Source: Candidatus Wallbacteria bacterium
GTDB lineage: Bacteria; Muiribacteriota; UBA6191; JACPRK01
Reading direction: 5' to 3'
DNA: 45,709 nt
NCBI GenBank assembly: GCA_016213845.1
Contig: JACQZN010000062.1
Span: forward strand, 1 to 45,709
Positions within the stretch are counted from its first letter, which is position 1. Each line of letters opens with the position of its first letter. Below, one piece after another: positions 3,134 through 19,734 of this stretch. The notes beneath the pieces are model-generated. The model was not told the origin of the DNA. It ran no database searches and worked only from the letters and a program-made list of their open reading frames with translations. The position numbers and the translations under genes were made by a program.

Positions 3134-4303
3134 TCAGTTGCTGGCGCCGGGACCGGCTCGCGGCAGCAGGAAGGAGAACCGGCATCCCAGGCCTGGCTCG
3201 CTGTCGACCGAGATTCGACCGCCGTGAGCCTCGACCAGGTCCTTGCAGATGGCGAGCCCCAGCCCTACGCCGTTGGTGTGGCCCTCGGCGCGAGCTCCGC
3301 GGCGGAAGCGCTCGAAGAGCTGCTCTCTTTCTTCGTTGCAAAGTCCCGGACCGTGGTCGACGACTTCGAAACGGACCCAGTCTGCCCCGTCGGCGGTGAC
3401 GCGGATCTCGATGGTATCGTCGGGCGCGGAGTACTTGGTCGCGTTGACGAGAAGGTTGTCCAGGACGCGGTAGATCTTGCCCTCGTCGCACCAGATCATG
3501 GGGTCGCCTTCGATGGGCGTCGCCAGGAAGATCTGGCGTCGAGCCTCGGCCTGGCGCTCCAGCTCGGCGATGCACTGGCTGGTGAGCTGGTTGATGTTGA
3601 CCCACTGGCCTCTCAGCTCGAACTGGCCGGACTGTAGCGTGTAGAGATCGAGTACCGACTCGATCAAGCGGAGCTGCCGGCGGACGGCGCTCTGGATCAT
3701 CGCCGCCCAACGCTTGCGATCCGGTACCTCGACGGCTTTCCCCAGGCTCTCGGCTGCCAGCAGAATGGTTCCGAGCGGACTGCGCATATCGTGCGCGGCC
3801 ATCGAGTGGAAGCAGGTGTTCAGCTCGATACGCTCCTCGAGCATGCTGGCGACGTCGTCGAAGAGGCGAAGGGTCGAGGCGCCCTCTGCCGGCCTGGCCC
3901 CGGGTGCGGGATGAGCCCTTAGCCGCACGCTGAAGTCCCCGGCAGCGAAAGCCTCGAGACCCTGGTTCAACTCCTGGAGGAGTGCCCGGCTCTGGTCCCT
4001 CTCGGCCTGCGCCCTGCGGAGCTCGGCGCGCAGCTCCGCCAGCCTGCCATGGCGCTCCCGGCCCTCCGGGTGTTCATCGGCGTGGCCGGCCGGTTCGGAA
4101 AGCGAGCCACGGCGGATCCCCTCCACCATCTGCTCCAGGGAGTGGCGAATCCGCGAAGGGTGCCCTGCGTCAGGCTCACCCGAGCTCAAGAAGGCTTCCA
4201 CGGGCAGGTGGCCTAGCTCGGAGGACTCTCCTGTCTCACCGGACTCTGACGGATCTGCACACTGCAGCGGCGGTTGCAATTCTGGGCTCTCCTGCTCTTC
4301 CAT
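3134..4303 (-). CDS. Soluble sensor histidine kinase (HisKA + HATPase_c), no TM segment or recognisable sensor domain
   Basis: H-box FHSMAAHDMRSPLGTIL and the N/G1/G2 boxes (LDNLLVNATKY, DHGPGL, GVGLGLAICKDLVEAHGGRI) are present. I place the start at M46 (ATG 4303) because a GGAGGG SD lies 7 nt upstream, whereas the TTG at 4438 is preceded by an anti-SD CCTCC. The N-terminus is acidic and disordered, followed by a coiled coil. Confidence 0.8.
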   Translation of the reverse strand: MEEQESPELQPPLQCADPSESGETGESSELGHLPVEAFLSSGEPDAGHPSRIRHSLEQMVEGIRRGSLSEPAGHADEHPEGRERHGRLAELRAELRRAQAERDQSRALLQELNQGLEAFAAGDFSVRLRAHPAPGARPAEGASTLRLFDDVASMLEERIELNTCFHSMAAHDMRSPLGTILLAAESLGKAVEVPDRKRWAAMIQSAVRRQLRLIESVLDLYTLQSGQFELRGQWVNINQLTSQCIAELERQAEARRQIFLATPIEGDPMIWCDEGKIYRVLDNLLVNATKYSAPDDTIEIRVTADGADWVRFEVVDHGPGLCNEEREQLFERFRRGARAEGHTNGVGLGLAICKDLVEAHGGRISVDSEPGLGCRFSFLLPRAGPGASN

Positions 4304-4495
4304 CCTGCTTCCCTCCCTATCGGCGCGGTCGCGCACCCTCTCGTGTGGGCGCCGATCCGCTACGAACTCCGGGAACTGGCCTGAGAGTGTGAAGTTCGGC
4401 ACGTTCGATCTACCCATGAGACGGACGAGGCCAGACAACTTGCGGGAGGTTGCGAGATTCGCCCGTTCGGACGATCCGGGTCCGCCGCAGGAGGC

Positions 4496-5458
4496 CTAGC
4501 TGCCCGGATCGCGATGAACCGTGGGCGGGATGCTGGCCAGCAACTCCGAGAGGTCGGCGCCGATGTCGGCCTCGCTGACGGCCCGCACCAGGCTTGCGGC
4601 CTCCTGGATGCCGAGCTTGAAGTCGCGGGTCAGCCGCAGCGTCGCGTTTCGGACCATCTCGCGGCGGACGCGATCGATCCAGCGGCTGATGCGGCTCTCG
4701 TGCACGCGGTAGAGGGCGGCGATGTCTCGCTGCTTGGCGCAGTCGACGTAGACCAGCTTCAGCAGGAGCCGGTCGGACTCGTCCAGGTCTGCCAGGGCGG
4801 CCGGAATGGCAATGGAGAGCATCCTGCGGCGTTCATCGATCAGGTAAAGCTGCTCGGCGCTGGGGGCCACTCGAGGCGAGGGCTGCTCCGGCCGGTGCAC
4901 CTCCGATTCCTGAACGCTCTCCAGGGGCACCTCACGTCCCCGCCGGCGGGCCAGGTCGATGATGCGGTGGCGCAGCACCAGCCAGAGCCACCGGGAGAGC
5001 GTGCTCGCTCCCGTGTAGCTCATGATGCGGCTGCGACCGTCGGCCCGGTCGGTGAAGAAAAGGTCGGCCATCACTTCGGAGGCGACTTCGTCGGCCAGCG
5101 AGCGGTCCCGGGTCAGGCGTCTGGCCGCCTGCAGGAGAAAGTCCCCGAAACGGGCCGAGAAGATCTCCCACGACGCCGGCTGGCCACCGGCCATGGCGCA
5201 GGCCAGCAGCAGGTCCGGGTAGTGCAGCGCTTGCAAGACCTCCTCGAGCGATCCCGCGGGGCCTGTCCCACCGACGACGCGCTCGCAGGCGCTGCGCAGG
5301 ACGCGTTCGAAAAACACCTCCGGGTCGACCCGGATGGTTCCGAGCTCGGCCTGGGCCTGCGCGTGGGTGGCGGTCAGGCGTTCGCGATGGACCTCGAGCA
5401 GCGCGCGACGAGCGTCGGGCGAGCCCGCCAGATACTCGCGGCAGAGGGTGACGTCCAT
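4496..5458 (-). CDS. ECF-type sigma-70 family factor (regions 2 and 4 only) with an N-terminal extension of about 110 aa
   Basis: Region 2 (ADLFFTDRADG...SRWLWLVLRHRIIDLARRR) and the region 4 HTH (LLLKLVYVDCAKQRDIAALYRVHESRISRWIDRVRR) are present with no region 3. The ATG at 5458 (residue 244 of the 563-aa track ORF) has GAGGTG 5 nt upstream. The rest of the track ORF upstream is Arg/Gly-rich junk. Confidence 0.8.
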   Translation of the reverse strand: MDVTLCREYLAGSPDARRALLEVHRERLTATHAQAQAELGTIRVDPEVFFERVLRSACERVVGGTGPAGSLEEVLQALHYPDLLLACAMAGGQPASWEIFSARFGDFLLQAARRLTRDRSLADEVASEVMADLFFTDRADGRSRIMSYTGASTLSRWLWLVLRHRIIDLARRRGREVPLESVQESEVHRPEQPSPRVAPSAEQLYLIDERRRMLSIAIPAALADLDESDRLLLKLVYVDCAKQRDIAALYRVHESRISRWIDRVRREMVRNATLRLTRDFKLGIQEAASLVRAVSEADIGADLSELLASIPPTVHRDPGS

Positions 5459-5610
5459 GGGGCGCACCTCGAACGGTAGCATCCCAGGAGTCGCCGGGCA
5501 AGCTGGGAGTTGCGGCCGGGCGAACGCGCACCGGGATTCGAGCCCCCGAGCACCAAACTGAAGCCTCACCCCCGTGCCGCTGGCAATGGCTCGGGAGGGG
5601 CGGTAGGCCA

Positions 5611-6246
5611 TCAGGCTCCTGCGGTTATCCAGATGGAGGCCACGCGCTCCATGGCCAGCTCCGCGATGTGAACCCAGCCGAGCTGATCGGTCTTGCCGGC
5701 GACCTGGCGTCCCGTGTCGAGCTCCAGCTCCGTGACGGCACCGGCAATCGGCATGCCCGAGGTCTTGGTGATGCGGACATACAGACCCGCTCCGGGGCCG
5801 GCCTCCACTCGCTTCAGACTGAGCCGGTAGGGCCCCAGGACTATGGAGTTGGCACCCTCGATCTCGGGCGCCCGGTCGCGGAAGGCGGGTGCTGGCTGCT
5901 GCAGGTTGCCCAGGTCGAAGGCGCCCTCCAGCAGGGATTCCGCGGCGCCGACGGCATTCGAGAGGGCGATCTTCAATCCTATCCATCGGCTTCCCGGCGT
6001 CTGCTGCGTTGGCTGAACCAAAGCGGCCGGGACGGCCTCCACCAGGTCGTCCAGCTCCAGCGAGGACGCGAAGAGCGCGGCGTGCCTGCAGGGAGAGCAT
6101 CCGGTCAGATGGGTCTCCACCTTGAGCCGCTCCTCCCGGGTGAGCGTGCGCTCCACATAACCGGCAAGCAGGTTCGCGTCGACGCAACCGCCGGTGTCGT
6201 CCGACGAGTCAGCCAGCAGTTGCCCTAGTGGAGTCTTCATCGTCAA
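5611..6246 (-). CDS. zf-HC2 (ZAS-type) putative anti-sigma factor
   Basis: The N-terminus CVDANLLAGYVERTLTREERLKVETHLTGCSPCRH matches the zinc anti-sigma Hx3Cx2C pattern. It lies immediately upstream of, and on the same strand as, the ECF sigma gene, which is the reverse of the usual sigma-then-anti-sigma order. There is a TTG at 6246, and ATG at 6240 is an alternative start. Confidence 0.6.
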   Translation of the reverse strand: MTMKTPLGQLLADSSDDTGGCVDANLLAGYVERTLTREERLKVETHLTGCSPCRHAALFASSLELDDLVEAVPAALVQPTQQTPGSRWIGLKIALSNAVGAAESLLEGAFDLGNLQQPAPAFRDRAPEIEGANSIVLGPYRLSLKRVEAGPGAGLYVRITKTSGMPIAGAVTELELDTGRQVAGKTDQLGWVHIAELAMERVASIWITAGA

Positions 6247-6287
6247 GGCCCCCTCGTGTGGTCGCCAGTGGCGGCCGGCGTCAGCCG

Positions 6288-6303
6288 CGGAACGGAGGTT
6301 CCG
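6288..6303. promoter_or_regulatory. Palindrome CGGAAC-GGAG-GTTCCG in the divergent region between the anti-sigma/sigma operon and the OMP genes
   Basis: Perfect 6-bp inverted arms seen in the sequence. GGAAC is the canonical ECF -35 core and is presented on both strands here. On the + strand GTCTA follows only about 13 nt downstream, which is shorter than the usual 16-17 nt spacer, so a promoter call is weak. Confidence 0.25.
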
Positions 6304-6491
6304 CCAGTCTACCCAACTCTAGGACGGGCTGGGGTTGGAAACTTGCGCCTCCGCGGATGAAGGGCTTCCCTCACCGGCCAGGCGCTGACCCGCGGTGCCC
6401 CGTTCGAATGACCTTATCGGAACGAGCGAATCGGACGAAAAGAGGTGTGGAGCCTCGCGCCGAGAGTCCGCGTGCCTCCGCCTACCGGAAC

Positions 6492-7529
6492 ATGCCAGAT
6501 CGCAAGCTCGCAGCCAAGGGGATCTCGACAGGGGGGCTGTGGCGCTACGTCCGGACCTTGCTCATGTGTGTGTTGACCACGGGCCTGGCGGCTGGCCAGG
6601 AGGCGCCGGGCCCCAGACCGTACGCCGAGGTGCTGGCCGAGATCGCAGGCATGGCTCGTCCCGCGGCGGTGACGCGGCGTCCCCTGCTGGTCGACCGGCC
6701 CATCGTCCTCGACTTCCCGGAGCAGTCGATCGTGCTCGGCCATCGCACGCGGGTAGATGAGCGGCCCGAGCCGGTGTCCGCCGCCGGCTTTCCCGGCCTG
6801 ACGTTCCAGACCCGCGCCTCGACTCGAGAGGCCTTCGTCGAGGCCCGCCGCCGGCTGGGGGACCGTACCGAGCTCGGAATCCGTGTGCCGTTCGTCGATG
6901 CCAAGGAGACTCGCCCTACTCGGATCCAGCCACTGGCCACCGCTCCTTTCTTCACGACGCTGGAAGACGTAAGGACCGAAAGCGGCATCGGCGACGTCAC
7001 CCTCACCGTGGCCCGCGCCGCGAACCGACCTGGCCTGAGCCGAAGGGTCGCGCTCGACCTCAAGCTAGCGAACGCGACCGCCTCGGTTCCCGATGTGCGG
7101 AGCCTGCCGCTCGGCAGCGGGCAGATGGACATGGCGCTCTCCTATGGCGTCAAGCGCACCCGCGGCCGCTTCGCCGCCACCGCTGTCGCGGGCGCCACGC
7201 TCCGGATGGAGGGAACGGCCAGTGACCTTTCGGGGCGTGCGCTCGAGCTAGACCCGGGCGATCAGCTCCAGCTCACCCTTCGGGCCGATCGAGCCGTGCG
7301 GGACTGGCTGACGGCCTCCCTTGTCCTCGAGGGCCAAGCTGCCGGACGCGAGTCGATCGGCGGCGTGGAGGTGGTCGGCACGTCGCGCCAGGTCGTGACC
7401 GCCTCGCCCGTTCTGACCTACCAGGCCTCCGAGGTGCTCGAGGTCATCGCCTCGGCGCGTTACTCGATGCTGGCCCACGGCGTCGCCGACGCGCCGCTCT
7501 TCGAGGCCGCCCTGAGGTGGCGCTACTGA
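6492..7529 (+). CDS. Putative outer-membrane beta-barrel protein (paralogue of the next gene)
   Basis: Signal-peptide-like N-terminus MPDRKLAAKGISTGGLWRYVRTLLMCVLTTGLAAGQEAPG, alternating amphipathic beta-strand pattern, a GIGDVTLTV motif and a C-terminal ...ALRWRY. Start candidates in the same frame are 6357, 6408 and 6492. I chose the last because it is closest to the hydrophobic core. Confidence 0.5.
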   Translation: MPDRKLAAKGISTGGLWRYVRTLLMCVLTTGLAAGQEAPGPRPYAEVLAEIAGMARPAAVTRRPLLVDRPIVLDFPEQSIVLGHRTRVDERPEPVSAAGFPGLTFQTRASTREAFVEARRRLGDRTELGIRVPFVDAKETRPTRIQPLATAPFFTTLEDVRTESGIGDVTLTVARAANRPGLSRRVALDLKLANATASVPDVRSLPLGSGQMDMALSYGVKRTRGRFAATAVAGATLRMEGTASDLSGRALELDPGDQLQLTLRADRAVRDWLTASLVLEGQAAGRESIGGVEVVGTSRQVVTASPVLTYQASEVLEVIASARYSMLAHGVADAPLFEAALRWRY

Positions 7530-8548
7530 TGGACCCGCGCGTGGCCACCAACGCCCATCTCCTCCCGACGCCCGCACGACTGGTGCTGCTGGCGGGGGCG
7601 GCGCTGCTGGCGTCCTGCGGGCACCTGGCCGCCCAGGCCATTCCGAGCGCCCTGCCGGCCATCGGTAAGCCGCTCGATATCCGCGATACTCGCAACATCA
7701 CGGCCCCGGATGGGCAAGTGGTGGTGACTGCAAGTCACATCTACCAGGTGGCCACGAAGGCCTTCGACTCCGACGGCCGCCGCCGGGACCTGCCGCTGGA
7801 TCAGACGGTGCGCCTGCAATCTCTGCCGGTCCTGGCCACCTACGGCCTCACGAGCCGCTGGAACGTCGGCGCCGGTGCCAGTCTCGTCAACTCGATCGAG
7901 CGCAAGCAGTCCGTCCTCAATTTCGTCCCGGGGGCCACCCTCCTGGAGCAGGCCCTGCCCGTGGGCAGCGTCAGCACGATCGAATCGTCGGGCGACGGGG
8001 TCGGCGACTTGAACCTGGTCGCACAGTACCGGCCGGGCTGGTTCTCCGGCGACCGCGTGGAGTCCCTGCTGGCGGTGGACGTGGTCGCGCCGACGGCCGG
8101 CAGCACGCCGGGGGGGCCGCTGGACCTGGCCTTGGGGCAGGGGTACTGGACCTACCGGCTCTCGTACTCGGCCGTCAAGGAGATCTTCCCGATAACCTAC
8201 TTCGCCCGCGCCGGCTACGAGTGGAACCGGCCGGACACGCTCTCGACGGCGACCGGCGGCACCTTTCGGCTCGACGCGGGTGATGGAGTGAATTACGCCG
8301 CTGGAGCCAGTTACTCCATTGGGGCGCGCTTCTCGCTTCAGGCGCTGGCGGTCGGCAGTTGGCACGAGGAGACCGTCCGCAGCAATGTCCCGGCGCGCGG
8401 TCCGGCCACTCGCAGCCTCGACTTTCGCCCCGGATACACTTTCCGGCTGGGAAGTCTGCAGCTCACGCAGCAGCTGGCGATCCCTCTGGCCGGCGCCAAC
8501 ACTCTGGCGCCCGAGGGAATCCTGACGACCGTGGAGTACAGGTTCTGA
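7529..8548 (+). CDS. Putative outer-membrane beta-barrel protein
   Basis: Signal peptide (LLPTPARLVLLAGAALLASCGHLAAQA), a beta-strand-rich body with a GDGVGDLNLVAQY motif, and the classic C-terminal ...TTVEYRF OMP signature. ATG 7529 overlaps the upstream TGA (TGATG), and GTG 7517 is an alternative start. LLAS|C also fits a lipobox loosely. Confidence 0.6.
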   Translation: MDPRVATNAHLLPTPARLVLLAGAALLASCGHLAAQAIPSALPAIGKPLDIRDTRNITAPDGQVVVTASHIYQVATKAFDSDGRRRDLPLDQTVRLQSLPVLATYGLTSRWNVGAGASLVNSIERKQSVLNFVPGATLLEQALPVGSVSTIESSGDGVGDLNLVAQYRPGWFSGDRVESLLAVDVVAPTAGSTPGGPLDLALGQGYWTYRLSYSAVKEIFPITYFARAGYEWNRPDTLSTATGGTFRLDAGDGVNYAAGASYSIGARFSLQALAVGSWHEETVRSNVPARGPATRSLDFRPGYTFRLGSLQLTQQLAIPLAGANTLAPEGILTTVEYRF

Positions 8549-8552
8549 ACGC

Positions 8553-11363
8553 ATGACGCACCGACAGAGCGCCCGGATCGCGCCAACGCTGATCGTCCTC
8601 ATCGGACTGTTTTCCGCTCTGACGGCGCACGCCTGGGACCGGGGCGTGAAGGCTCGGGGCGCGCTTCGGGCGGCGGACCGGCTATTCAACAAGCGCGCCT
8701 ATAGGGAGGCGCTGGAGCGCTACCGGAGGGCGGCCCAGCAGGCGGAAACTTCGGACGGCGAGGAGCTCTCGAGGGTCCAGACGCAGCTGGGGGAGTGTGC
8801 CGAGAAAGCGGGCCTCTACCGCGAGGCTCTGGAGGCCTGGAGCCGGGCGCTCGGAACCCAGCTCGCGCGCGATGACCGAACCGGCATGGCAGAGACCCTG
8901 CGCCGCATGGGCGAGGCTCATGCGTTCCTCGGCGAGTATGAGAAGGGGCTGCGGTGTCTGGCGCTCGGGCGCGAGCTGCCGGGCGAGTCGGAGGATGTGG
9001 GCCGGAAAGCGCGCGCGCTGAAGAGCCTGGCGGTCGTGCGGGGGGCCCTGGGTGATTTCCCCGCCCAAGGGAAGGCGGCCCAGGAGGCCCTGGAGTTGTT
9101 TCGCAAGGCGGACGACGCCGATGGCGAGGCCGGCTGCTGGGTGCAGCTCGCGGCGGTGAGCCAGGCGGGCGGCAAGTTCGACGAGGCGCTGCGGGCCATC
9201 GCCGGCGCCCAGACGGCTGCGAAGCGTTCGCCCAATCCCGACCTGGCTCCGATCTACTTGACGAAGGCCGGGATTCACCGCGCCTGGGGCGACATGCGCC
9301 AGGCACTCGCGACCGATCAGGAAGCGCTCGAGGCCGCGCGCAAGGGAGGGGTTGTCGAGGCCGCGGCGGTGGCTCAGGCGAACCTGGGGCTGGACGCCAT
9401 GGCGTTCGGAGAGTACGGGCGAGCCCGAGAGGCGCTAGAGGCCGCCCGCAAGACGTTCCGCGAGTGCGGCGCGGCGGACGATGTCGCGCGCATGTGTCTG
9501 GAGCTCGGGCGGCTGCACTACTTCCAGAAGGGCATGACGCTAGCGCAGGCGGAGCTGGAAGAGGCCCGGCGTCTCTTCGAGGCCTCTGCGCAGCCCGTGG
9601 CCGTGGCGGTCGTACGAGCAGCTACGGGGCGGGTGCACGAGGCGCAGGGCCGGTTCGTGGAGGCACTGACGGAGCACGAGCACGCGCTGGCGGCTTTCCG
9701 CGCCGCGGGCGAGCGGTCCGGCGTCGCTGCCGAAGCGGTGGAGCGGGGGATGGTGCTGGCCGCGATGGGGCGCGGGGCGGAGGCGCTGGCGGCGCTCTCC
9801 TCTGCCGATGCGGCCGGGGGCGAGGCCGATGTCGGTTGGCGAAGGTGGCAAGGCAAGGCGCGAGTGGCCGCCCTTCACGGCGACTCGAACGCGGCCGCGG
9901 CACACTACCGCAAGGCCGCTGACGAGATCGAGAAACTCCTGGTGAATGCGCGTGTACCCCAGTTCCGTTCGTCGTTCCTGGGGGGCGGCGATCGGCTGGC
10001 CCTCTACGACGAGGCGATCGAGCTGGCCGTGCAGAGCGGTCGCGCGGGCGAGGCACTGGAGCTGGCAGAGCGCTCAAGGGCACGCGCGTTCCTGGACCTG
10101 CTCGGGGCGGGAAGCGTGAACGTCCGGCAGGGGGCCGGGGCGACGCTGCTTGCGCGCGAGAAGGAGCTCAAGGAGCACATCCTGGCGCTCTCCCGCCGGG
10201 TCGCCCGAACGCCGGAGGCTCCGCCCGCCGGGCAACTGCGGGGCCTGGTCGCCGAGCCGGCCGAATCCGAGCTGCTGGCGGCTCGAGCGGAGCACCACGC
10301 GTTACTGGAACGTATCGCCACGGAGAGCCCGGCGCTGGCGGGGCTGGTCGCAGCCCAGCCGGCGAGCGCCGAGCGGCTGCGGTCGGCTCTTGCCGCCGAC
10401 GAGCAGGCGCTGGTGTACCACATCGGAGACTCCGCGGCGCGCCTCTTCCTGGTCGAGCGCCGGGGCGTCACGGTGGCGAAGCTCTCGGCTACCCCGAAGG
10501 AGCTGCGGTCGCTGGCGGCCGTCTTCCGCATTCAGCTCGAGCAGCGCATCCCGAGCGAGGCGATGGCGCGGCGGCTCTACGGGTTGCTCATCGCTCCCGT
10601 CGAGGGGCGGCTCCGACCGGGCTGTCTGGTGCTTGCGCCCCACGACATGCTCCACTATGTGCCGTTCGCGGCCTTGATAGGACCCGGCGGCAGGCCCCTG
10701 GGTTTCGAGCGCGAGCTGCGCATGGTTCCCAGTCTCACGGCCTCGGCTTTCACCCCGGCTCGGCCGGCAGTCGCGGCCCCGATGGCGCTGGTCGCGGGTG
10801 CGCCGGCGTCGGGAGCGCCCGAGCTTCCCAAAGCGACTGAAGAGGTCCGGCGGGTCGCGTCGCTCTACCCGGGCGCGACAGTGCTGACCGGTGAGGCCGC
10901 CACCGAAGAGGCTGTGAGGCGCCACATGGAGACGGCCGGAGTCATCCATCTGGCCTGTCATGGAGTCCTGGAGGGCGAGCTCCCGCTCTACAGCGGCCTG
11001 CTGCTGACACCGGGCGGCGGCGAGGACGGGCGGCTCGAGTTGCACGAAATCTTCGGCCTGCGGTTGAGCGCTAGGCTGGCGGTCCTCAGCGCCTGCCAGA
11101 CGGCGCTCGGGTCGCTCTCGCGAGGCGACGAGCTGGTCTGCCTCTCGCGGTCCTTCCTGCAGTCGGGGTGCCAGGGCGTCCTCGCCTCTCTGTGGAGCGT
11201 GCCCGACGAGTCGACAGCGCAGCTGATGACCGAGCTGCACCGCCGGATCGCCGCGGGCGATCGCCCCTCGACTGCCTTGCGTGTGTCAGCGCAGAAGCTG
11301 GCCGCTGACCCGAAGTTCGCCGAGCCGTACTTCTGGGCCGCCTTCGCTCTGTTCGGCCGCTAG
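8553..11363 (+). CDS. Secreted TPR-repeat protein with a C-terminal CHAT (caspase-like) peptidase domain
   Basis: N-terminal signal peptide MTHRQSARIAPTLIVLIGLFSALTAHA and a long TPR-like helical region. The C-terminal CHAT domain has the catalytic dyad context VIHLACHG (His at 10959) and LAVLSACQTA (Cys at 11094). The start is 4 nt after the OMP stop. Confidence 0.85.
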   Translation: MTHRQSARIAPTLIVLIGLFSALTAHAWDRGVKARGALRAADRLFNKRAYREALERYRRAAQQAETSDGEELSRVQTQLGECAEKAGLYREALEAWSRALGTQLARDDRTGMAETLRRMGEAHAFLGEYEKGLRCLALGRELPGESEDVGRKARALKSLAVVRGALGDFPAQGKAAQEALELFRKADDADGEAGCWVQLAAVSQAGGKFDEALRAIAGAQTAAKRSPNPDLAPIYLTKAGIHRAWGDMRQALATDQEALEAARKGGVVEAAAVAQANLGLDAMAFGEYGRAREALEAARKTFRECGAADDVARMCLELGRLHYFQKGMTLAQAELEEARRLFEASAQPVAVAVVRAATGRVHEAQGRFVEALTEHEHALAAFRAAGERSGVAAEAVERGMVLAAMGRGAEALAALSSADAAGGEADVGWRRWQGKARVAALHGDSNAAAAHYRKAADEIEKLLVNARVPQFRSSFLGGGDRLALYDEAIELAVQSGRAGEALELAERSRARAFLDLLGAGSVNVRQGAGATLLAREKELKEHILALSRRVARTPEAPPAGQLRGLVAEPAESELLAARAEHHALLERIATESPALAGLVAAQPASAERLRSALAADEQALVYHIGDSAARLFLVERRGVTVAKLSATPKELRSLAAVFRIQLEQRIPSEAMARRLYGLLIAPVEGRLRPGCLVLAPHDMLHYVPFAALIGPGGRPLGFERELRMVPSLTASAFTPARPAVAAPMALVAGAPASGAPELPKATEEVRRVASLYPGATVLTGEAATEEAVRRHMETAGVIHLACHGVLEGELPLYSGLLLTPGGGEDGRLELHEIFGLRLSARLAVLSACQTALGSLSRGDELVCLSRSFLQSGCQGVLASLWSVPDESTAQLMTELHRRIAAGDRPSTALRVSAQKLAADPKFAEPYFWAAFALFGR

Positions 11364-11397
11364 CCTTCACGCTGGCGCGCACCGGTGGGGCGGGGTT

Positions 11398-13773
11398 ATG
11401 ACTCCTGGCATGGAGGAGGCCAGAGAGTCGGTTCGGACACCGACGCGCTCGTGGAGATCGACCGCCGCGATCGCCGTCGCGGCGTGCGTCGCGGCCCTGG
11501 CTGCGGATTCCCTCGTGCCAGAGCTGCACCTGTGGTTCGGCGACCTCGGCGTGAAGGCCCGCGAACGCCGGCCGCTCGATCCGCGCGTCGTGCTGGTAGA
11601 CCTGGAGTCCTGGCCCAGGCCCAGGGGAGTCCTGGCTGCGGCCCTGCGGACCATCGCCGCGATGAAGCCCCGCGTCATCGCGCTGGACGTCTTGCTCGAC
11701 GTCACCCGCGACGATCCCCGGCAAGATCGCGAGCTGGCAGACGCCATCGCCTTGTGCGGCCGGGTCGTGTTGCCGACTGCCGTGGAGCAGCCGGGCGCCG
11801 CGGGGACGCCGACGCCGCCAGAACCTGCACGGGCGAGCGCGCCGGCCCCGACCCCGCTGGTTTCGATGTTCGCCAGCGCGGCCCGTGCGACAGGGTTTGC
11901 CAACTTCGAAGTCGATCTGGACGGAGTCGTGCGCCGGTTGCCCCTCACGTACTGGCCGGCGGGAAGCTCTCCCGAGGGCGGTCTCCCGGCCTTCGCCGTA
12001 TCCGCAGTCTGCGCGTACGCCGCACAGACCGCCGGCAGCCAGTTCGCCTGGCCCCGCGAAGACAGCTGGCAGATCGACTGGTGTGAGACCGCACGAGAGC
12101 GGCTGCCCGTCGCCTCGATGAGCCGCTTGCTGGCCGACCCCGAGTATCGCCGGGCAATGGAGGAGCTGGGGTTCTTCCGGGACCGGATCGTGCTCATCGG
12201 GTACCTGGGCATCCGCTACGTCGGCGACGGTTTTCTGACGCCGCTCTCGACAACGGCCATGGACCGCACACCGGGCGCCGTCGTGCACGCCAACGTCCTG
12301 TCCAATCTGCTGACCGGCAATCGGCTAGTCGAGGCCGGGCCCGTGCACGTCGGGGCGCTGGCGCTCCTGGCAGCGCTGGCGGGCGCGTTGATGGGCCGAG
12401 TGCGCGTGAGCGCGCGGATGGTGCTCTTTCAGCTGCTGCTCCTGGGCGGCGTTCTGGGACTGGGCGTGCTCTCGACGGCCCAGCGCGGCGTTCTGCTGGA
12501 CGTGCTGCCAGTGACGGCGAGCGCAGCGCTGGCGCTGGGGATGGCCAGCCTGCTCTCGGCTCAGGCGCTCATGCGGCTCACCCTGGTGCGGCGCGTCATG
12601 GCGCTCTTCGGACTGGCGCCGAGCGCGGATGTGGCGGTTCTGAACGTGGCATCCGACGGCCCCTCCGAGGGCGGCTTCATCCGGTACTCCATCCAGCTGC
12701 GTGAGGGCGTCGGTCTGGGCGCCCCGGTTACGCTGTTCAGAACGGCCGTGTCTGCCGACAGCCACCGCAGGCTGCTCCACCGGCTCGACGAGCTGCTCTC
12801 CCCGGTCAGCCCCACGGCGCCAGAGGAGGAGCTGATCGATCTCGGACTCGAGATCCGCAGCGAGCTGCTTGGCCGGGGCGTCGAGCGAGCGCTGGCGGAC
12901 CTGACCGTGCAGAACGTCCACCTGGAGCTGGGCCTGGCGGACCTGGGCATCCCCTGGGAGCTGGCGAACATCGCAGGGCGACCGCTGCTGGAGCGGTTCG
13001 GGGTGAGCCGCAGCGTTGTGACGGAGCGCGACGGCGCCGATTGGCCCGCGACACCGAAGGGCCGGCACGCACGTGAAGACCGCGAGGAGGGTTTCCTGGC
13101 GCTGATCGTCGCCAATCCTCGACCGCTCGGGCCGGAGTGGGACGCATTACCCGGGGCCCAGGACGAGGCGGTGGCGCTGGCGGAGTCACTGGCGCCGCTT
13201 TCGAGCGAGCCGTCCGGTCTGCGGGTGGAGCTCCTGATGGGCGAGGAAGCGACCCGTGCCGCGGTGGTCGAGCGCCTGCGGTCGCGGACGGTGGATGTCC
13301 TTCACTTCAGCGGCCACGCAACCTTCGATCCGCAGGCTGGCGACTCCACCGGATTCCTGTTCCCCGAGGGGACTCTGGGGGCACCGGCGCTGGCGGAGCT
13401 GGCCCGGGAGGGCTCTCTTCCGCCGGTAGTCTTCGCCAATGCCTGCCACACGGCCCGCGGCTACGAGCACGCGGCGGGCGGCGACGTGTCGCTCCTGACG
13501 TCGCGGCTGTCGTTGCCGGCAATCTTCACGGCGGCAGGCGCGCGCTTGTTCGTGGGATGTCTCTGGAGGGTAGAGACGCAGGCCGCCGCGCGATTCTCGC
13601 TCGAGTTCTACGGCGGGCTGATGGCCGGGGCAACCGCTGGGGAAGCGATGCAGCGCGCGCGCCGGGCGGCTGCGAACTACTGGATGACGCACGCAGCCTA
13701 TATAATGTATGGCGATCCCAGGTTGAGGTTGCTGGCGGGCGCGCTGGGTGCTCGCGAAAGGGGGACACGGTGA
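11398..13773 (+). CDS. CHASE2 extracytoplasmic sensor domain, 3-4 TM segments, and a C-terminal cytoplasmic CHAT peptidase domain
   Basis: CHASE2-like N-terminus after TM1 (VVLVDLES...KPRVIALDVLLD...DRIVLIGY), followed by a hydrophobic block (GALALLAALAGALMG / MVLFQLLLLGGVLGLGVL / VLPVTASAALALGMASLL). The C-terminal CHAT has VLHFSGHA (His 13315) and VVFANACHTA (Cys 13444). ATG 11398 is residue 40 of the track ORF. Confidence 0.85.
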   Translation: MTPGMEEARESVRTPTRSWRSTAAIAVAACVAALAADSLVPELHLWFGDLGVKARERRPLDPRVVLVDLESWPRPRGVLAAALRTIAAMKPRVIALDVLLDVTRDDPRQDRELADAIALCGRVVLPTAVEQPGAAGTPTPPEPARASAPAPTPLVSMFASAARATGFANFEVDLDGVVRRLPLTYWPAGSSPEGGLPAFAVSAVCAYAAQTAGSQFAWPREDSWQIDWCETARERLPVASMSRLLADPEYRRAMEELGFFRDRIVLIGYLGIRYVGDGFLTPLSTTAMDRTPGAVVHANVLSNLLTGNRLVEAGPVHVGALALLAALAGALMGRVRVSARMVLFQLLLLGGVLGLGVLSTAQRGVLLDVLPVTASAALALGMASLLSAQALMRLTLVRRVMALFGLAPSADVAVLNVASDGPSEGGFIRYSIQLREGVGLGAPVTLFRTAVSADSHRRLLHRLDELLSPVSPTAPEEELIDLGLEIRSELLGRGVERALADLTVQNVHLELGLADLGIPWELANIAGRPLLERFGVSRSVVTERDGADWPATPKGRHAREDREEGFLALIVANPRPLGPEWDALPGAQDEAVALAESLAPLSSEPSGLRVELLMGEEATRAAVVERLRSRTVDVLHFSGHATFDPQAGDSTGFLFPEGTLGAPALAELAREGSLPPVVFANACHTARGYEHAAGGDVSLLTSRLSLPAIFTAAGARLFVGCLWRVETQAAARFSLEFYGGLMAGATAGEAMQRARRAAANYWMTHAAYIMYGDPRLRLLAGALGARERGTR

Positions 13774-14669
13774 GAGTCCTGACGCTGGTTCTGCTTCTAG
13801 GGTGGTTGCATTTCGACGCGGCGGTTGCGGCTGGCCGTCCGGCAGTGGCCGTGCTCATGAGCGCCTCGGGGCGCTGCGAGGTGGCCCCGGTCGGAGCGGG
13901 CAACTTCGAGGCCGCGCGGGTCGGCATGACGCTCACGGCGGGAGACGTGGTGGCCGTGCGCGAGGGAAGCGCGACGCTGCTGCGGGCCGATGGGCGGGTC
14001 GAGACCGTAGAGGCCGGCAAGAGCGTGCGGCTGGAGCCTCGAGTGGGCGGCGACGCGCCGTCGGGGGCGCTGGGACGGCTCTGGCAGGCGCTACTCAACC
14101 GTGCAACCACCGTGATGTCGGGAACTCGCATCTTGAGCGAGGCCGGCGCCGTGCGCGGGCTGCCTGCAGGACGGATCGATCTGTTGAGCCCGCGCAACAC
14201 CGCACTGCTGGCGCCGCCCGCGCGCGTGGCGTGGGAGCCGCATCCGGCCGTCGGGACCTACCGCGTCCGGATCTCCGACGGCAACGGGAGCGTGGTCTGG
14301 TCCGCGTACACGAGCGGGACGCAAGCTGCCGTTTCGGCGTCGCCGGGTCTGTTCGAAGCGGGCGCGTGGTACTTCGTGCGCGTCACTGACGGCCGCCGCG
14401 GGGGCGTGGCGAGCGACGAGGCATACTTCCGCGTGATGACGGACACCGAGAAGCGCCAGGCTCTCTCCGATGTCGAGACCGTCAAGGGCGCGTTTTCCCG
14501 CGCCGTGGGCGGGGAGGCCGTGGCGCTGGCCGTGGGCGGGATCTTCGAGCATCATGAGCTCCTCGACGACGCCCTGGCGACCTACCGGGGGGCCGGGGCC
14601 GGCGCCGATCTGGCGCGCGCGATCGACTTCGTGCACCTGAAGAACGGCCGGCGGTGGGCGATGCGCTGA
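13770..14669 (+). CDS. Secreted FecR-domain protein
   Basis: The GTG start at 13770 overlaps the CHASE2-CHAT stop (GTGA) and has AAAGGGGGA 6 nt upstream. Signal peptide VRVLTLVLLLGWLHFDAAVAAG, then the FecR-like core ARVGMTLTAGDVVAVREGSATLLRADGRVETVEAGKSVRL. FecR-domain proteins are a known genomic partner of CHASE2 proteins. Confidence 0.65.
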   Translation: MRVLTLVLLLGWLHFDAAVAAGRPAVAVLMSASGRCEVAPVGAGNFEAARVGMTLTAGDVVAVREGSATLLRADGRVETVEAGKSVRLEPRVGGDAPSGALGRLWQALLNRATTVMSGTRILSEAGAVRGLPAGRIDLLSPRNTALLAPPARVAWEPHPAVGTYRVRISDGNGSVVWSAYTSGTQAAVSASPGLFEAGAWYFVRVTDGRRGGVASDEAYFRVMTDTEKRQALSDVETVKGAFSRAVGGEAVALAVGGIFEHHELLDDALATYRGAGAGADLARAIDFVHLKNGRRWAMR

Positions 14670-14699
14670 GGGAGCCCCGGCGGGCGGCTTGTGCCCGGG

Positions 14700-14721
14700 A
14701 TCAGGATACTCAGTTCCTGAT
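14700..14721. promoter_or_regulatory. Inverted repeat ATCAGGA-N8-TCCTGAT, with a second small hairpin GCGAAA-ATCAG-TTTCGC at about 14751..14767, in the 130-nt gap upstream of the efflux operon
   Basis: Seen directly. This is the only relatively AT-richer stretch between the FecR stop and the TolC ATG. It is a candidate operator or promoter element. Confidence 0.3.
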
Positions 14722-14799
14722 TTGGTTCCGAATCGGCCGCGCGCGGTCCGGCGAAAATCAGTTTCGCGTCCCGCCGGTACGCGGTATCCTGTGCGCGCG

Positions 14800-16392
14800 A
14801 TGAAGGTCCAGATTTGTTTGATCCTGGTGGCCTCGCTGGCCGCTCCGACTTCGGGGGGGGAGCCGCTGCCCGTGACGGCCACCGCGCCTCTGGCGCCGAC
14901 GGCGGTCGAGAGCGTGGCGCTCGACACACTGGTGGCCCGCGCGATCGAGCCGGCCACGTCTCCTGCGGTCAAGCTCACGCTGCCCGAGGCGCTGGCCCGG
15001 GCGCTCGAGAACAACCGGACGCTGGCCGTCAGGCGGCTGGACCCCGCCATCGCCCGCGCCCGGCTGATGCAGGAGGAAGGAGCCTTCGACGACGCGCTCA
15101 CCCTCCAGGTCCAGCGCCAGCACGCGAAGAATCCGACAGCAAGTTCACTGGCCGGAGCCAACGTGTCCGAATCCGACACCCGCACCGGCAACCTGGGCTT
15201 TCGCACCCGCCTCCGGGACGGAAGCGCCCTCACCTTCAATGCCAACAACCAGAGAAACGAGTCCAACTCGCGCTTCCAGACTCTCAATCCCAGCTTCGTG
15301 TCGAACCTATCCGTGAGCCTCACGAAGCCGCTGCTCAGAGACTCGGGTGACGCGGCGACGGCGGGCGTCTCGGTGGCCGCCAACGCCGTCGAGCAAGCCA
15401 GGCTGCGCCTGCGCAAGCAGCTCATCGACACGTTGGCCGCCGTGGAGCGGCAGTACTGGGATCTCGTCTTCGCCCGCCAGGACCGGGAAGTGAAACGGTT
15501 CAGCCTGGAGGCCGCCAAGTCGCTCTTGGACCTGAACCTGGCGCGCCGGCAGTCCGGCCTGGGCAGCGACGTGCAGGTCGTCGAGGCTGAAACCACGCGC
15601 GCCACGCGGACCGACGATCTCGAGGTGACCGGCCGGATCGTGGCCGACGCCCAGGAGATCCTGCGCCGCCAGCTCTCGCTCGCCGACGTTCCGCCCGGCG
15701 CCGAGCTGGTGCCCGTGCAGGTGCCGGCTCAGCTTCCCTCGGAGGCTCCGCTCGACGCGTCGCTCGTTGACGCGTTCCAGCGCAGGCCCGACCGCCTCGA
15801 CGCCGTCGTGGAGCTCGCGAATCGAGATATCCGGCTCGAGTTCCTCCGAAACCAGAAGTTGCCGCGCGTCGATCTCGTGGCCAGCTATGCCCAGAACGGG
15901 CTGGCCGGGGGATTCGGTAGCGCCCTCGACACGGCGGCGGGAGGCGATTTTCCCGGCTACACCGTCGGCCTGCAAGTGGAGATTCCGCTCGAGGGACGGT
16001 CCGCCCGAGGAAACTACCAGGCGGGTGTCCTCGAGAAGAAGCAGGCGCTGTTGAACCTCAAGGCGATCGAGGACCAGATCCAGGAGGAGGTCACGCGGGC
16101 AGTCCGCACGCTCGGCACGGACTTGAGACGGGTGGAGGTCTCGCGGCGAGGCGCGGAGCTGGCCCAGCGCCAGCTGGCGGCCGCCGAGGAACGATACCGC
16201 CAGGGGCTGATCGCCAACTTCGACCTGCTCCGCTTCCAGCAGGATCTGGCCGATGCCCGCTCCCGGGCCTTGCGCTCTGTGGTCGACGCCAAGAAGAGCG
16301 CGGTGGCTCTCGACGCGGCCACGGGGCGGTTGCTGGAAGCTCGCGGCGTGCTGGTGGAGGAGCCTTCGGAGTCGAAGGCTCCGGCGAGGTGA
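14800..16392 (+). CDS. TolC-family outer membrane efflux channel
   Basis: Signal peptide MKVQICLILVASLAAPTSG. Two repeated outer-membrane-efflux-protein halves with long coiled-coil segments (RLDPAIARARLMQEEGAFDD...; ...RYRQGLIANFDLLRFQQDLADARSRAL). Confidence 0.85.
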   Translation: MKVQICLILVASLAAPTSGGEPLPVTATAPLAPTAVESVALDTLVARAIEPATSPAVKLTLPEALARALENNRTLAVRRLDPAIARARLMQEEGAFDDALTLQVQRQHAKNPTASSLAGANVSESDTRTGNLGFRTRLRDGSALTFNANNQRNESNSRFQTLNPSFVSNLSVSLTKPLLRDSGDAATAGVSVAANAVEQARLRLRKQLIDTLAAVERQYWDLVFARQDREVKRFSLEAAKSLLDLNLARRQSGLGSDVQVVEAETTRATRTDDLEVTGRIVADAQEILRRQLSLADVPPGAELVPVQVPAQLPSEAPLDASLVDAFQRRPDRLDAVVELANRDIRLEFLRNQKLPRVDLVASYAQNGLAGGFGSALDTAAGGDFPGYTVGLQVEIPLEGRSARGNYQAGVLEKKQALLNLKAIEDQIQEEVTRAVRTLGTDLRRVEVSRRGAELAQRQLAAAEERYRQGLIANFDLLRFQQDLADARSRALRSVVDAKKSAVALDAATGRLLEARGVLVEEPSESKAPAR

Positions 16393-16393
16393 T

Positions 16394-17758
16394 ATGAGCC
16401 GGGGGAAGCTCATCGCTGCGCTGGTCGCCGTCCTTCTCACCGGCTGGCTGGGATACTCCAAGTTCGTCAAGAAGAGCGAGCAGAAGGTCGTCTACCGCAC
16501 GGCAAAGGTGGAGCGGGGCGACCTCGTCGCGACCGTGTCCGCGACCGGCACGCTCAACGCCGTCACCACCGTGCAGGTCGGCAGCCAGCTCTCCGGCATC
16601 ATCATGCGGCTTCACGCCGACTTCAACAGCCAGGTGAAGAGCGGCCAGCTCCTGGCCGAGCTGGACCCGGCGACCTTCGCGGCCTCGGTGGCGCAGGGGA
16701 AGGCAGATGTCGACGCTGCCCAGACGGCGATCCAGGCGGCCACCACTGATCTGAAGATCCTGGACGCCGAGGTCGGCGCGGCCCGGGCCGGGATCGCCAC
16801 GGCGCGGGCCAACCTGGCCAAGGCCGAAGTGGCGCTGGTGGACCGGGAACTGATCCTCAAGCGCACACGCGCACTGCGCTCCAAGGCCTTCGCGGCAGAG
16901 CAGGACCTCGACACCGCGCAGGCCAACCGCAACACGGCGGCCGCAGAGGTCGAGGCCGCCAAGGCGGGACTGGAGAACGCGAAGGCCAAGCTCGAGACCG
17001 CCCAGGCGCAACGCATCAACGGCGACAGCAAGGTGGCCTCCTCCCGGGCGCAGCTGGCGCAGAAGCAGGCGTCGCTGGAGCTGGCGCGCGTCAACCTGGG
17101 GCGCACGCGCATCCTCTCGCCGATCGACGGCGTGGTGGTTAGCCGCAATGTGGACGTCGGTCAGACGGTCGCCGCGAGCCTGCAGGCGCCTGTCCTCTTC
17201 ACGATCGCCAACGACCTGAGACGCATGCAGATCGACGCCAACGTCGACGAGGCCGACATCGGCCGCGTGAAACTCGGGCAAACCGTCGAGTTCACGGTCG
17301 ACGCCTACCCGGACGATCGCTTCGACGGAAAGGTCGTCCAGATGCGCCTGCAGCCTATCGTGAGCCAGAACGTCGTCACCTACGACACGGTCATCGAGGT
17401 GGCCAACGAGGCGATGCTCCTGCGGCCCGGAATGACGGCCAGCGTCCGCATCCAGATCGCCAGCGTCAAGGGCGCGCTCAAGGTGGCCAGCGGCGCGTTC
17501 GGCTACCGCCCGGCGCCGCCACCGGGCAAGCCGCCGGCGGCGCCTGCGCCCCTGGCGAAGGGAAAGCGGCGGTTGCACGTTCCTCGGGACGGAAAAGCCG
17601 AGCCCCTGGAAGTGGCGATTGGAATCGCCGACGGCACCTCTACCGAGCTGCTGGACAAGCAGCTCTCCGAGGGGGACGCGGTCATCGTCGGAGACGACGG
17701 CGAGAGCGAGGCCGGCCCGTCGGGCCCGACGAATCCGTTTGCTCCGCGCCGGAGGTGA
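16394..17758 (+). CDS. HlyD/MacA-type periplasmic membrane-fusion adaptor
   Basis: N-terminal TM anchor (LIAALVAVLLTGWLGY), biotinyl-lipoyl-like hairpin (GDLVATVSATGTLNAVTTVQVGSQLSGII...SGQLLAELD), long alpha-helical hairpin, and RILSPIDGVVVSRNVDVGQTV. The ATG is 1 nt after the TolC stop with GAGGTG upstream. Confidence 0.85.
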   Translation: MSRGKLIAALVAVLLTGWLGYSKFVKKSEQKVVYRTAKVERGDLVATVSATGTLNAVTTVQVGSQLSGIIMRLHADFNSQVKSGQLLAELDPATFAASVAQGKADVDAAQTAIQAATTDLKILDAEVGAARAGIATARANLAKAEVALVDRELILKRTRALRSKAFAAEQDLDTAQANRNTAAAEVEAAKAGLENAKAKLETAQAQRINGDSKVASSRAQLAQKQASLELARVNLGRTRILSPIDGVVVSRNVDVGQTVAASLQAPVLFTIANDLRRMQIDANVDEADIGRVKLGQTVEFTVDAYPDDRFDGKVVQMRLQPIVSQNVVTYDTVIEVANEAMLLRPGMTASVRIQIASVKGALKVASGAFGYRPAPPPGKPPAAPAPLAKGKRRLHVPRDGKAEPLEVAIGIADGTSTELLDKQLSEGDAVIVGDDGESEAGPSGPTNPFAPRRR

Positions 17759-17764
17759 GGCGGC

Positions 17765-18511: not shown

Positions 18512-18521
18512 GGCCCCGCAG

Positions 18522-19733: not shown

Positions 19734-19734
19734 A

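Follow-up and report, generated by a model that had tools for sequence, protein, structure and literature searches.

A candidate envelope-spanning module joining a CHASE2 sensor to CHAT proteases in a Candidatus Wallbacteria genome

Introduction

CHASE2 is a widespread bacterial sensor domain whose mechanism is poorly understood. It has been described as feeding kinases and nucleotide cyclases, and the cyclases of S. meliloti are the only case in which a signal has been put forward. In this species the CHASE2 receptors CyaD1, CyaD2 and CyaK occur with the outer-membrane (OM) barrel NsrA, via which the cyclases sense a protein signal (PMC13001267). A CHASE2 histidine kinase is accompanied by a LysM-FecR protein in Burkholderiales (PMC5192318), and a CHASE2 cyclase by FecR and TPR genes in Campylobacterota (PMC9239204). 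Here we analyse a locus in which CHASE2 is joined to a predicted caspase-like protease of the CHAT clade. It lies at positions 6492-14669 of a full 45,709-bp contig (the window) from a groundwater metagenome-assembled genome (MAG) labelled Candidatus Wallbacteria (locus tags HY816_; ~69% GC). The five genes, named g1 to g5 here, encode two candidate OM barrels, a secreted TPR-CHAT protein, the CHASE2-CHAT protein and a secreted DUF928-family protein, and a sigma/anti-sigma pair is encoded divergently from g1.

The CHASE2-CHAT protein, g4, shares with the kinase and cyclase receptors a layout of one transmembrane (TM) helix, CHASE2 and three further TM helices. The surroundings are also alike, with an adjacent secreted beta-rich partner, OM barrels (candidate ones in the window) and nearby TPR proteins. 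The differences are that the output in the window is a CHAT protease, that the partner is of DUF928 rather than LysM-FecR type, and that the TPR partner has a protease domain of its own. Caspase-fold proteases have been linked to CHASE2 before, as metacaspase or caspase fusions in Trichodesmium (PMC3501461) and as EACC2-caspase-CHASE2 proteins (PMC8195603). In these, too, the two domains share one membrane protein and the protease is predicted to be cytoplasmic. However, they combine an N-terminal Peptidase_C14-type caspase with a C-terminal CHASE2, whereas the window has an N-terminal CHASE2 and a CHAT-clade protease, and the gene contexts differ.

CHAT proteases have been connected to sigma factors in several systems. 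In the type III-E Craspase, Csx29 cleaves Csx30 and thereby lifts the inhibition of CASP-sigma (PMC10028731), and the CalpL/CalpT/CalpS and SAVED-CHAT cascades adjoin sigma factors. The window resembles Craspase (PMC10028731, PMC9729208) in having, as we propose here, an allosterically switched CHAT that would cleave a sigma-factor inhibitor, and the g3 dyad matches the Craspase residues H585/C627 one for one. In contrast, Craspase is cytoplasmic and activated by gRAMP-bound target RNA, whereas the presumed sensor of the window is an extracytoplasmic CHASE2. In type III-E Craspase the TPR-CHAT is encoded with gRAMP/Cas7-11, a CRISPR array and Csx30/Csx31; the window has no CRISPR array and no cas gene among the genes surveyed, and Csx30 is unrelated to zf-HC2 anti-sigma factors.

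In Myxococcus xanthus, the transmembrane ZAS-type anti-sigma factor DdvA carries a TPR-CHAT on its periplasmic side (PMC11506125). The DdvA-DdvS locus and the window both combine a periplasmic TPR-CHAT that keeps its His-Cys dyad, an HxxxCxxC anti-sigma factor and a sigma factor of extracytoplasmic function (ECF) type, a candidate one in the window, and both are proposed to turn an envelope signal into sigma release by proteolysis. In DdvA the ZAS domain, TM helix and TPR-CHAT form one polypeptide, whereas the window encodes a separate secreted TPR-CHAT and a separate, TM-less soluble anti-sigma factor. It also has a membrane-spanning CHASE2-CHAT with a second, cytoplasmic CHAT, as well as the barrels and the DUF928 partner. 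By analogy, the window module resembles a 'split' DdvA-DdvS system. The logic of FecA-FecR-FecI, from OM barrel to periplasmic sensor to anti-sigma inactivation to ECF sigma, is similar as well. However, the window has no TonB-dependent receptor and no FecR match in g5, its anti-sigma factor does not span the membrane, and its candidate barrels are small (~340 aa) and FapF/MetA-like.

Of the full texts in the searchable corpus, none came up for 'CHASE2' combined with 'CHAT domain'. The initial annotation of this DNA considered the system uncharacterised. That holds for the architecture and fails for the parts, which have precedents (PMC3501461, PMC8195603, PMC11506125, PMC10028731, PMC13001267). 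The block described below is real, conserved, rare and uncharacterised as an architecture, while CHASE2 receptors and CHAT/anti-sigma switches are types already known.

Results

A CHASE2 ectodomain fused to a CHAT protease

The locus consists of five plus-strand open reading frames (ORFs) with a coding-type GC content at third codon positions (GC3 0.84-0.87). The central gene g4 (11398-13773, 791 aa) encodes a predicted inner-membrane receptor-protease. Its product matches Pfam CHASE2 (PF05226) at residues 30-328 (E 1.7e-33; 116.7 bits, cut-off 26.3) and Pfam CHAT (PF12770, of the caspase-haemoglobinase fold; E 1e-30; 107.7 bits, cut-off 24). The putative catalytic dyad is encoded by CAC at 13315 (H640, in HFSGHA) and TGC at 13444 (C683, in ANACHT). 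Both residues are invariant in seven close g4 homologues, and the H[FY][SA]GH and N[ASG]C motifs are kept in 13/13 CHASE2-CHAT sequences (the window g4 and 12 clusters). A profile of the g4 family matched the solved CHAT protein 8tl0 (1.1e-6), with HFsGH placed on HFIGH and lnaC on LNAC, and also separase 5mz6.

Hydropathy predicts a first TM helix at residues 23-43 and three more at ~315-333, 341-360 and 365-388, which leaves a CHASE2 ectodomain of ~44-310. Clusters of Lys and Arg are found at the N-terminus, in the loop between TM2 and TM3 (RVRVSAR) and after TM4. By the positive-inside rule, this 1+3 arrangement supports, as a prediction, an N-terminus inside, CHASE2 outside and CHAT in the cytoplasm. 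The relative P0018 agrees with this orientation because it carries a Ser/Thr kinase domain N-terminal to the same CHASE2-CHAT architecture. We also considered a fifth TM helix at 400-418, which would make the CHAT domain periplasmic, and rejected it: the segment is of borderline hydrophobicity, contains Asp, Asn and Pro, and has Arg 394, 399 and 400 at its N-terminal edge. It also belongs to the soluble CHAT fold, since numerous proteins that lack TM helices match the profile starting at positions 387-450.

A comparison with the near-identical locus L005 (1095-3470; homologous loci are numbered with L) showed that the receptor does not evolve evenly. The g3 and g5 proteins are 98% and 97.7% identical between the two. 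In g4, 39/54 amino-acid differences fall in the CHASE2 ectodomain (11527-12327, residues 44-310, mainly 139-216), which is 85.4% identical, compared with ~97% elsewhere in the protein. Of the codons that differ, 37 are nonsynonymous and 40 synonymous in the ectodomain, against 17 and 59 in the rest of g4. Such fast evolution of the sensor loop would be in line with an arms race or with shifts in the ligand recognised.

A second CHAT protein, predicted to be secreted

The gene upstream of g4, g3 (8553-11363, 936 aa), encodes a predicted secreted TPR-CHAT caspase-like protease. Pfam CHAT was matched at E 4.2e-65 (220.5 bits, cut-off 24), in addition to TPR_12. The NCBIfam Csx29 match is at domain level only (26.8 bits, cut-off 300), and no DdvA chain was matched when g3 was searched against PDB sequences. 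In four g3 orthologues the hydrophobic signal at the N-terminus varies and the mature sequence behind it opens with a conserved WDRGVKAR, the pattern of a cleaved signal peptide. The description of g3 as a TPR-CHAT protein with a signal peptide was borne out on both counts.

The dyad codons of g3 are CAT at 10959 (H803, HLACHG) and TGC at 11094 (C848, LSACQT). In a phmmer alignment, 'ihlaCHG' and 'lsaCqt' of g3 correspond to 'tiyCHG' and 'lgaCETD' in 7zoq, the solved TPR-CHAT of Craspase. The catalytic dyad of 7zoq is H585/C627, with T629 and D630 named right after the Cys (PMC9729208). Because the aligned residues are this published dyad, we place H803 and C848 at the catalytic positions. Profile-profile comparison (hhalign) of the g3 CHAT domain with the g4 family (96.8%) put HLACHG over HFSGHA and SACQ over NACH.

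Both CHAT dyads are thus intact, invariant and at catalytic positions, and catalysis is predicted for both domains. The codons named in the initial annotation are the right ones. The check that had been set for it in advance was detection of CHAT by hidden Markov model (HMM) in both proteins together with alignment of the His and Cys to characterised catalytic positions, and both were found. Its placement of one CHAT in the periplasm and one in the cytoplasm is supported, as a prediction, by the g3 signal peptide and, for g4, by hydropathy, charge and P0018.

The gene order is conserved and rare

The block begins with g1 (6492-7529, 345 aa), a probable OM beta-barrel gene that overlaps g2 by 1 nt (TGATG). 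g2 (7529-8548, 339 aa) encodes a probable FapF/Phenol_MetA_deg-like OM beta-barrel. Gaps of 4 nt and 34 nt separate g2 from g3 and g3 from g4. The last gene, g5 (13770-14669, 299 aa), encodes a secreted DUF928-family CHASE2 partner and overlaps g4 by 4 nt (GTGA), with AAAGGGGGA just before the overlap, through which g5 is translationally coupled to g4. The co-directional five-gene block was correctly recognised in the initial annotation with its junctions of 4, 34 and -4 nt; the g1/g2 junction of -1 nt is added here.

Relatives were sought exhaustively by HMM among 1.84 billion representatives; word-indexed searches gave six relatives for g4, two for g5 and six for g2. Among the top matches listed from the HMM search, full-length CHASE2-CHAT proteins formed 13 clusters. 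With one genome each for 185,579 species, CHASE2-CHAT was present in four MAGs, one of which had two copies. In a scan of metagenome contigs with the g4 CHAT profile, none of 68 CHAT loci had CHASE2, DUF928, barrels or the sigma pair.

The gene order is kept in at least five independent lineages at 35-60% protein identity, far beyond chance. All of g1-g5 are found in L001, g2-g5 in L008, and g3-g5 in L002, L005 and L113, the last of which is a second full module in the MAG that holds L001. L039 has g1-g3, as does L037, where the next gene is cut at the contig end. In the distant lineage of L108 (42% GC), a signal-peptide TPR-CHAT gene immediately precedes CHASE2-CHAT. A g5-like gene adjoins CHASE2-CHAT, with no TPR-CHAT, in L109, L111 and L112, and L110 has neither. 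This conservation and the Pfam domains support the earlier view that the module links extracytoplasmic sensing by CHASE2 to caspase-like proteases.

Variants of the arrangement were also seen. In alphaproteobacterial MAGs (L032; L034, 2097-12257), successive genes encode a TpsA exoprotein, a TpsB of ShlB type, a TPR-CHAT with a signal peptide and a CHASE2 adenylate cyclase. Judged by its domains, this cassette is related but differs in barrel and output. In L109 (236-5192) and L111 (1280-5380), CHASE2-CHAT comes after a gene for a small soluble protein of Guanylate_cyc type and a g5-like gene. The L109 receptor has an N-terminal Ser/Thr kinase, in the order Pkinase-CHASE2-CHAT (1112 aa).

A DUF928 partner of CHASE2

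g5 had been annotated as a secreted FecR-domain protein. The signal peptide is present, but the FecR part failed: neither g5 nor six homologues matched FecR (PF04773), even at E<=10. The protein has an N-terminal beta region (25-90), a DUF928/FN3-like region (~125-225) and helical TPR-like repeats (225-290). DUF928 (PF06051) gave no direct Pfam or NCBIfam match for g5, and one homologue reached 0.033. Comparison by hhalign of residues 125-285 with eight DUF928-type proteins gave 97.4% at E 1.1e-11; of these eight, the L014 and L018 proteins pass the Pfam cut-off of 26 bits (50.2 and 37.1 bits) and the L016 protein scores 25.6 bits. Residues 148-210 matched an FN3-like PDB profile (0.0027). By these profile comparisons, the C-terminal 55% of g5 is a divergent DUF928 domain. 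An AlphaFold2 model from two sequences (mean confidence, pLDDT, 42) was too poor for a fold search.

The N-terminal region has a weak hhalign match (residues 25-90; 75%, E 2.5e-5) to residues 96-165 of a Cupriavidus LysM-FecR protein, whose family partners CHASE2 histidine kinases. Pfam places FecR at 125-225 of that protein, and the aligned stretch covers the part just before the domain and its first third.

The neighbourhood of g5 is informative beyond the window. An HMM of g5 recovered genes after or before CHASE2 genes in at least 15 loci. In Acidobacteriota, Rhodanobacteraceae and others, they include small genes for secreted proteins immediately behind a CHASE2-adenylate-cyclase gene (E 1e-10 to 4e-6). 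Genes like g5 also flank the distant CHASE2-CHAT genes in L109, L111, L112 and L113. CHASE2 and DUF928-family genes overlap by 4 nt in the window, L001, L014, L015, L016 and L018; overlap loci with an adenylate-cyclase output come from several phyla (L014, 9953-12648; L016, 9935-12609; L018, 8759-11454; L015, 9938-12768; and others). Because this overlap recurs whatever the output domain, it points to a stoichiometric periplasmic partner. Being secreted and adjacent to CHASE2, g5 is as expected of a DUF928 partner. In the literature searched, the CHASE2-DUF928 pairing is mentioned in passing only (PMC5587647). Judged by gene neighbourhood, CHASE2 and DUF928 form the constant pair, often joined by a secreted TPR-CHAT as third partner, and CHAT output is the rare variant.

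Candidate barrels

Neither g1 nor g2 has a Pfam or NCBIfam match. They had been described as two paralogous OMP-like barrels, and the paralogy is modest but reproducible (BLASTP 0.001; hhalign 88%, E 3e-6; cross-family phmmer E 5e-7), with G[IV]GD and LGxGQ motifs common to both. g1 has an N-terminal signal-like segment and ends in RWRY (RWRY or RWRH across its family, which has orthologues in L001, L037 and L039 at 49-54% identity). g2 has a signal peptide and ends in EYRF, which is kept in orthologues. Both thus combine a signal peptide with the C-terminal aromatic beta-signal of OM barrels. When nine members of the g1 and g2 families were scanned together, one matched PF13557 (Phenol_MetA_deg) at 1.6e-4, the output not stating which family it belongs to. 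The g2 family profile matched the FapF barrel 5o67 at co-linear positions (E 0.005), and the same type of PDB comparison gave no match for the g1 family profile. An AlphaFold2 model of g2 from a six-sequence alignment was mostly beta (pLDDT 32) and unusable for a fold search. We consider it plausible, on weak support from these matches, that g1 and g2 are small FapF/MetA-type OM barrels.

A divergent sigma/anti-sigma pair

Beyond the five genes, the initial annotation overlooked a sigma/anti-sigma pair on the minus strand. The first gene (5611-6240, minus strand), divergent from g1, encodes a soluble anti-sigma factor of zf-HC2/ZAS type (209 aa; PF13490, E 1e-07, 32.3 bits, cut-off 22.2). HxxxCxxC is conserved in four homologues, and none of 4/4 homologues has a hydrophobic or TM segment (maximum KD19 <=1.29). 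Downstream of it lies the gene for an ECF-like sigma-70 family factor (4496-5482, minus strand; start uncertain, 5458-5560). Regions 2 and 4 were recognised by eye, region 2 by eye only, behind an N-terminal extension of ~100 aa. The protein is homologous to one in L037 (E 2.4e-48) that matches Sigma70_r4_2 (28.4 bits, cut-off 25.7) and Sigma70_r4.

The anti-sigma gene is divergent upstream of g1 in all four loci with this flank available (window, L001, L037, L039), and the sigma gene is present in 3/3 loci whose contigs reach it (window, L037, L039). This conserved pair likely gives the module its output, as far as gene order can tell. The intergenic region, which would hold the divergent promoters (6247-6491), contains AACTTGCG at 6340-6347. 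The motif (A)ACTTGCG(C), with the core 7-mer ACTTGCG, is common to the anti-sigma/g1 intergenic regions of the window, L001, L037 and L039. It lies ~150 nt upstream of g1 and has a second copy in the window at 4437-4444; two copies were seen against 0.8 expected, which is not significant by count. The motif may be an ECF-type -35 element.

Neighbouring genes

A histidine kinase gene (HisKA and HATPase_c; 3134-4438, minus strand) follows the sigma gene after a 58-nt gap. It is not conserved in L037, where a gene for a 1666-aa TPR/FG-GAP protein takes its position. Behind g5, genes with Pfam/NCBIfam matches encode a TolC-like OEP, a MacA-like adaptor, an ABC ATPase and two MacB-type permeases (14689-20952, plus strand). 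They are adjacent and non-core: such exporter genes adjoin g5 only in L004 and L005, which are closely related MAG contigs, and none is downstream in L001, L008 or L113. We excluded them from the module because they are kept only in the closest relatives.

Farther along the contig and unrelated to the module, an 889-aa bacterial MVP-like protein (40727-43396, plus strand) has a Major Vault Protein shoulder domain (8.8e-26) and a Vault_3 repeat. Two large overlapping ORFs of 1204 and 771 aa (34490-39513, minus strand) have coding-like GC3 and no Pfam match. No tRNA gene or CRISPR-like array was found in the whole window.

Discussion

We tentatively read the locus as an envelope-spanning signalling module of seven conserved genes with a proteolytic output, a view that we place slightly below an even chance. 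Starting from the domain content, intact dyads and conserved gene order that were observed, and from the topology predicted for g4, we infer the following signalling steps. An extracytoplasmic cue, probably a protein or peptide, would be admitted or presented by the g1/g2 barrels and reach the periplasm. There it would possibly be trimmed or bound by the g3 TPR-CHAT, and the CHASE2 ectodomain would perceive it together with g5 as a DUF928 co-receptor. A conformational change through TM2-4 of g4 would activate the cytoplasmic CHAT, which would cleave the soluble anti-sigma factor, and the freed sigma factor would transcribe the module and other targets. Other roles for g3 could be to generate the signal, to act as a co-sensor, or to process the barrels or g5. 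The mechanism is plausible because of the precedents set by Csx29, DdvA, CalpL/SAVED-CHAT and NsrA. We assign g4 as the protease that would cleave the anti-sigma factor because this TM-less protein cannot sense the envelope itself, and because the conserved block encodes no cytoplasmic enzyme other than the g4 protease. The whole chain, from envelope signal via CHASE2/DUF928 and the cytoplasmic CHAT to anti-sigma cleavage and sigma release, would be regulated proteolysis by CHASE2 in place of phosphorylation or cyclic-nucleotide synthesis. By analogy with the known switches we find this possible, with the balance tipping a little against it.

Several points weigh against this proposal. That the anti-sigma factor would be the substrate of g4 is read purely from the genes' proximity. 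The catalytic His of g4 is trailed by Ala or Ser, not by the Gly usual in CHAT proteins and caspases, which leaves its protease activity a prediction. The only Pfam match of the window sigma factor is HTH_23 at 8.6e-4, below significance as a sigma factor. The sigma/anti-sigma pair was seen only in the window's own subfamily, with none in L108-L112 within the available DNA. A g3-type gene is absent beside CHASE2-CHAT in L109, L111 and L112. The assignment of g1 and g2 as barrels is weak, and a promoter and terminator scan of the locus returned nothing above chance.

The same genes could instead form a protein-processing or secretion system of the envelope without transcriptional output. Here g3 would process a protein, at the surface or secreted, that the barrels handle, CHASE2-CHAT would monitor the process or feed back on it, and the sigma/anti-sigma pair would merely regulate the operon. 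The control of an adhesin by LapG/LapD would be a parallel. So would be the TpsA-TpsB-TPR-CHAT-CHASE2 rows of L032 and L034, where an exoprotein, its ShlB-type barrel, a secreted TPR-CHAT and a CHASE2 cyclase stand together; the likeness of the g2 family to FapF, a secretion barrel, and the TolC/MacAB-type genes behind g5 in the closest relatives point the same way. However, the conserved block has no cargo gene (for an adhesin, TpsA or an amyloid subunit), conservation of the exporter genes ends with those relatives, and a cytoplasmic protease with an invariant dyad and a TM-less anti-sigma factor would be left without a role. We regard this explanation as unlikely. A further alternative is that the CHAT domains, one or both, are non-catalytic scaffolds that signal through protein-protein interaction alone. 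The CHAT site of DdvA has been described as incomplete, the residue after the g4 His is unusual as noted above, and the activity is predicted from sequence. Nevertheless, none of the g3-type and g4-type sequences examined, down to ~30% identity, departs from the His and Cys, and these two align with proven catalytic residues, which makes pseudo-proteases very improbable.

Alternatively, the locus could serve anti-phage defence or programmed cell death: an attack sensed at the envelope would trigger the CHAT proteases to kill or arrest the cell, or the sigma factor would induce defence genes, as has been proposed for DdvA-DdvS. CHAT proteases do have roles in CRISPR defence of types III-E and III-B and in defence of CBASS type, a defence island is under the control of DdvA, and the proteins most closely related to the g4 CHAT domain are CHAT proteins with several domains. 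The fast evolution of the CHASE2 ectodomain (37:40 nonsynonymous to synonymous, 17:59 elsewhere) would also suit this role. A PADLOC scan gave weak, domain-level matches (BovA, 1.9e-6; TPR, 4.9e-6) and no system-level match, and we rejected a known defence system on that basis. Furthermore, the window has no CRISPR array, cas gene, cyclase, nuclease or toxin, the neighbours are efflux and housekeeping genes, and CHASE2/DUF928 is generally partnered by cyclases and kinases, which are ordinary outputs of signalling. A defence function is, in our view, quite unlikely.

Release of the sigma factor through CHASE2-gated proteolysis is the reading we favour. Its most specific form is a CHASE2 receptor with a caspase-like output that activates an ECF sigma factor by direct cleavage of a soluble zinc-finger anti-sigma factor, in tandem with a periplasmic caspase-like protease, as a two-protease relay across the inner membrane that dedicated OM barrels and a DUF928 co-receptor would feed. 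This would be an undescribed signalling mode, and in so specific a form we consider it doubtful. If it is true, a CHASE2 receptor with a protease output and a likely substrate encoded next to it would offer a simple cleavage read-out for CHASE2 signal transmission. The switches between CHAT proteases and sigma factors, so far DdvA, Craspase and SAVED-CHAT, would gain a receptor-gated member, and caspase-like signalling in prokaryotes would extend beyond CRISPR and CBASS defence. DUF928 would receive its first function, as a general periplasmic partner of CHASE2 sensors. The general coupling of CHASE2 and DUF928 is a testable lead on a large family of unknown function.

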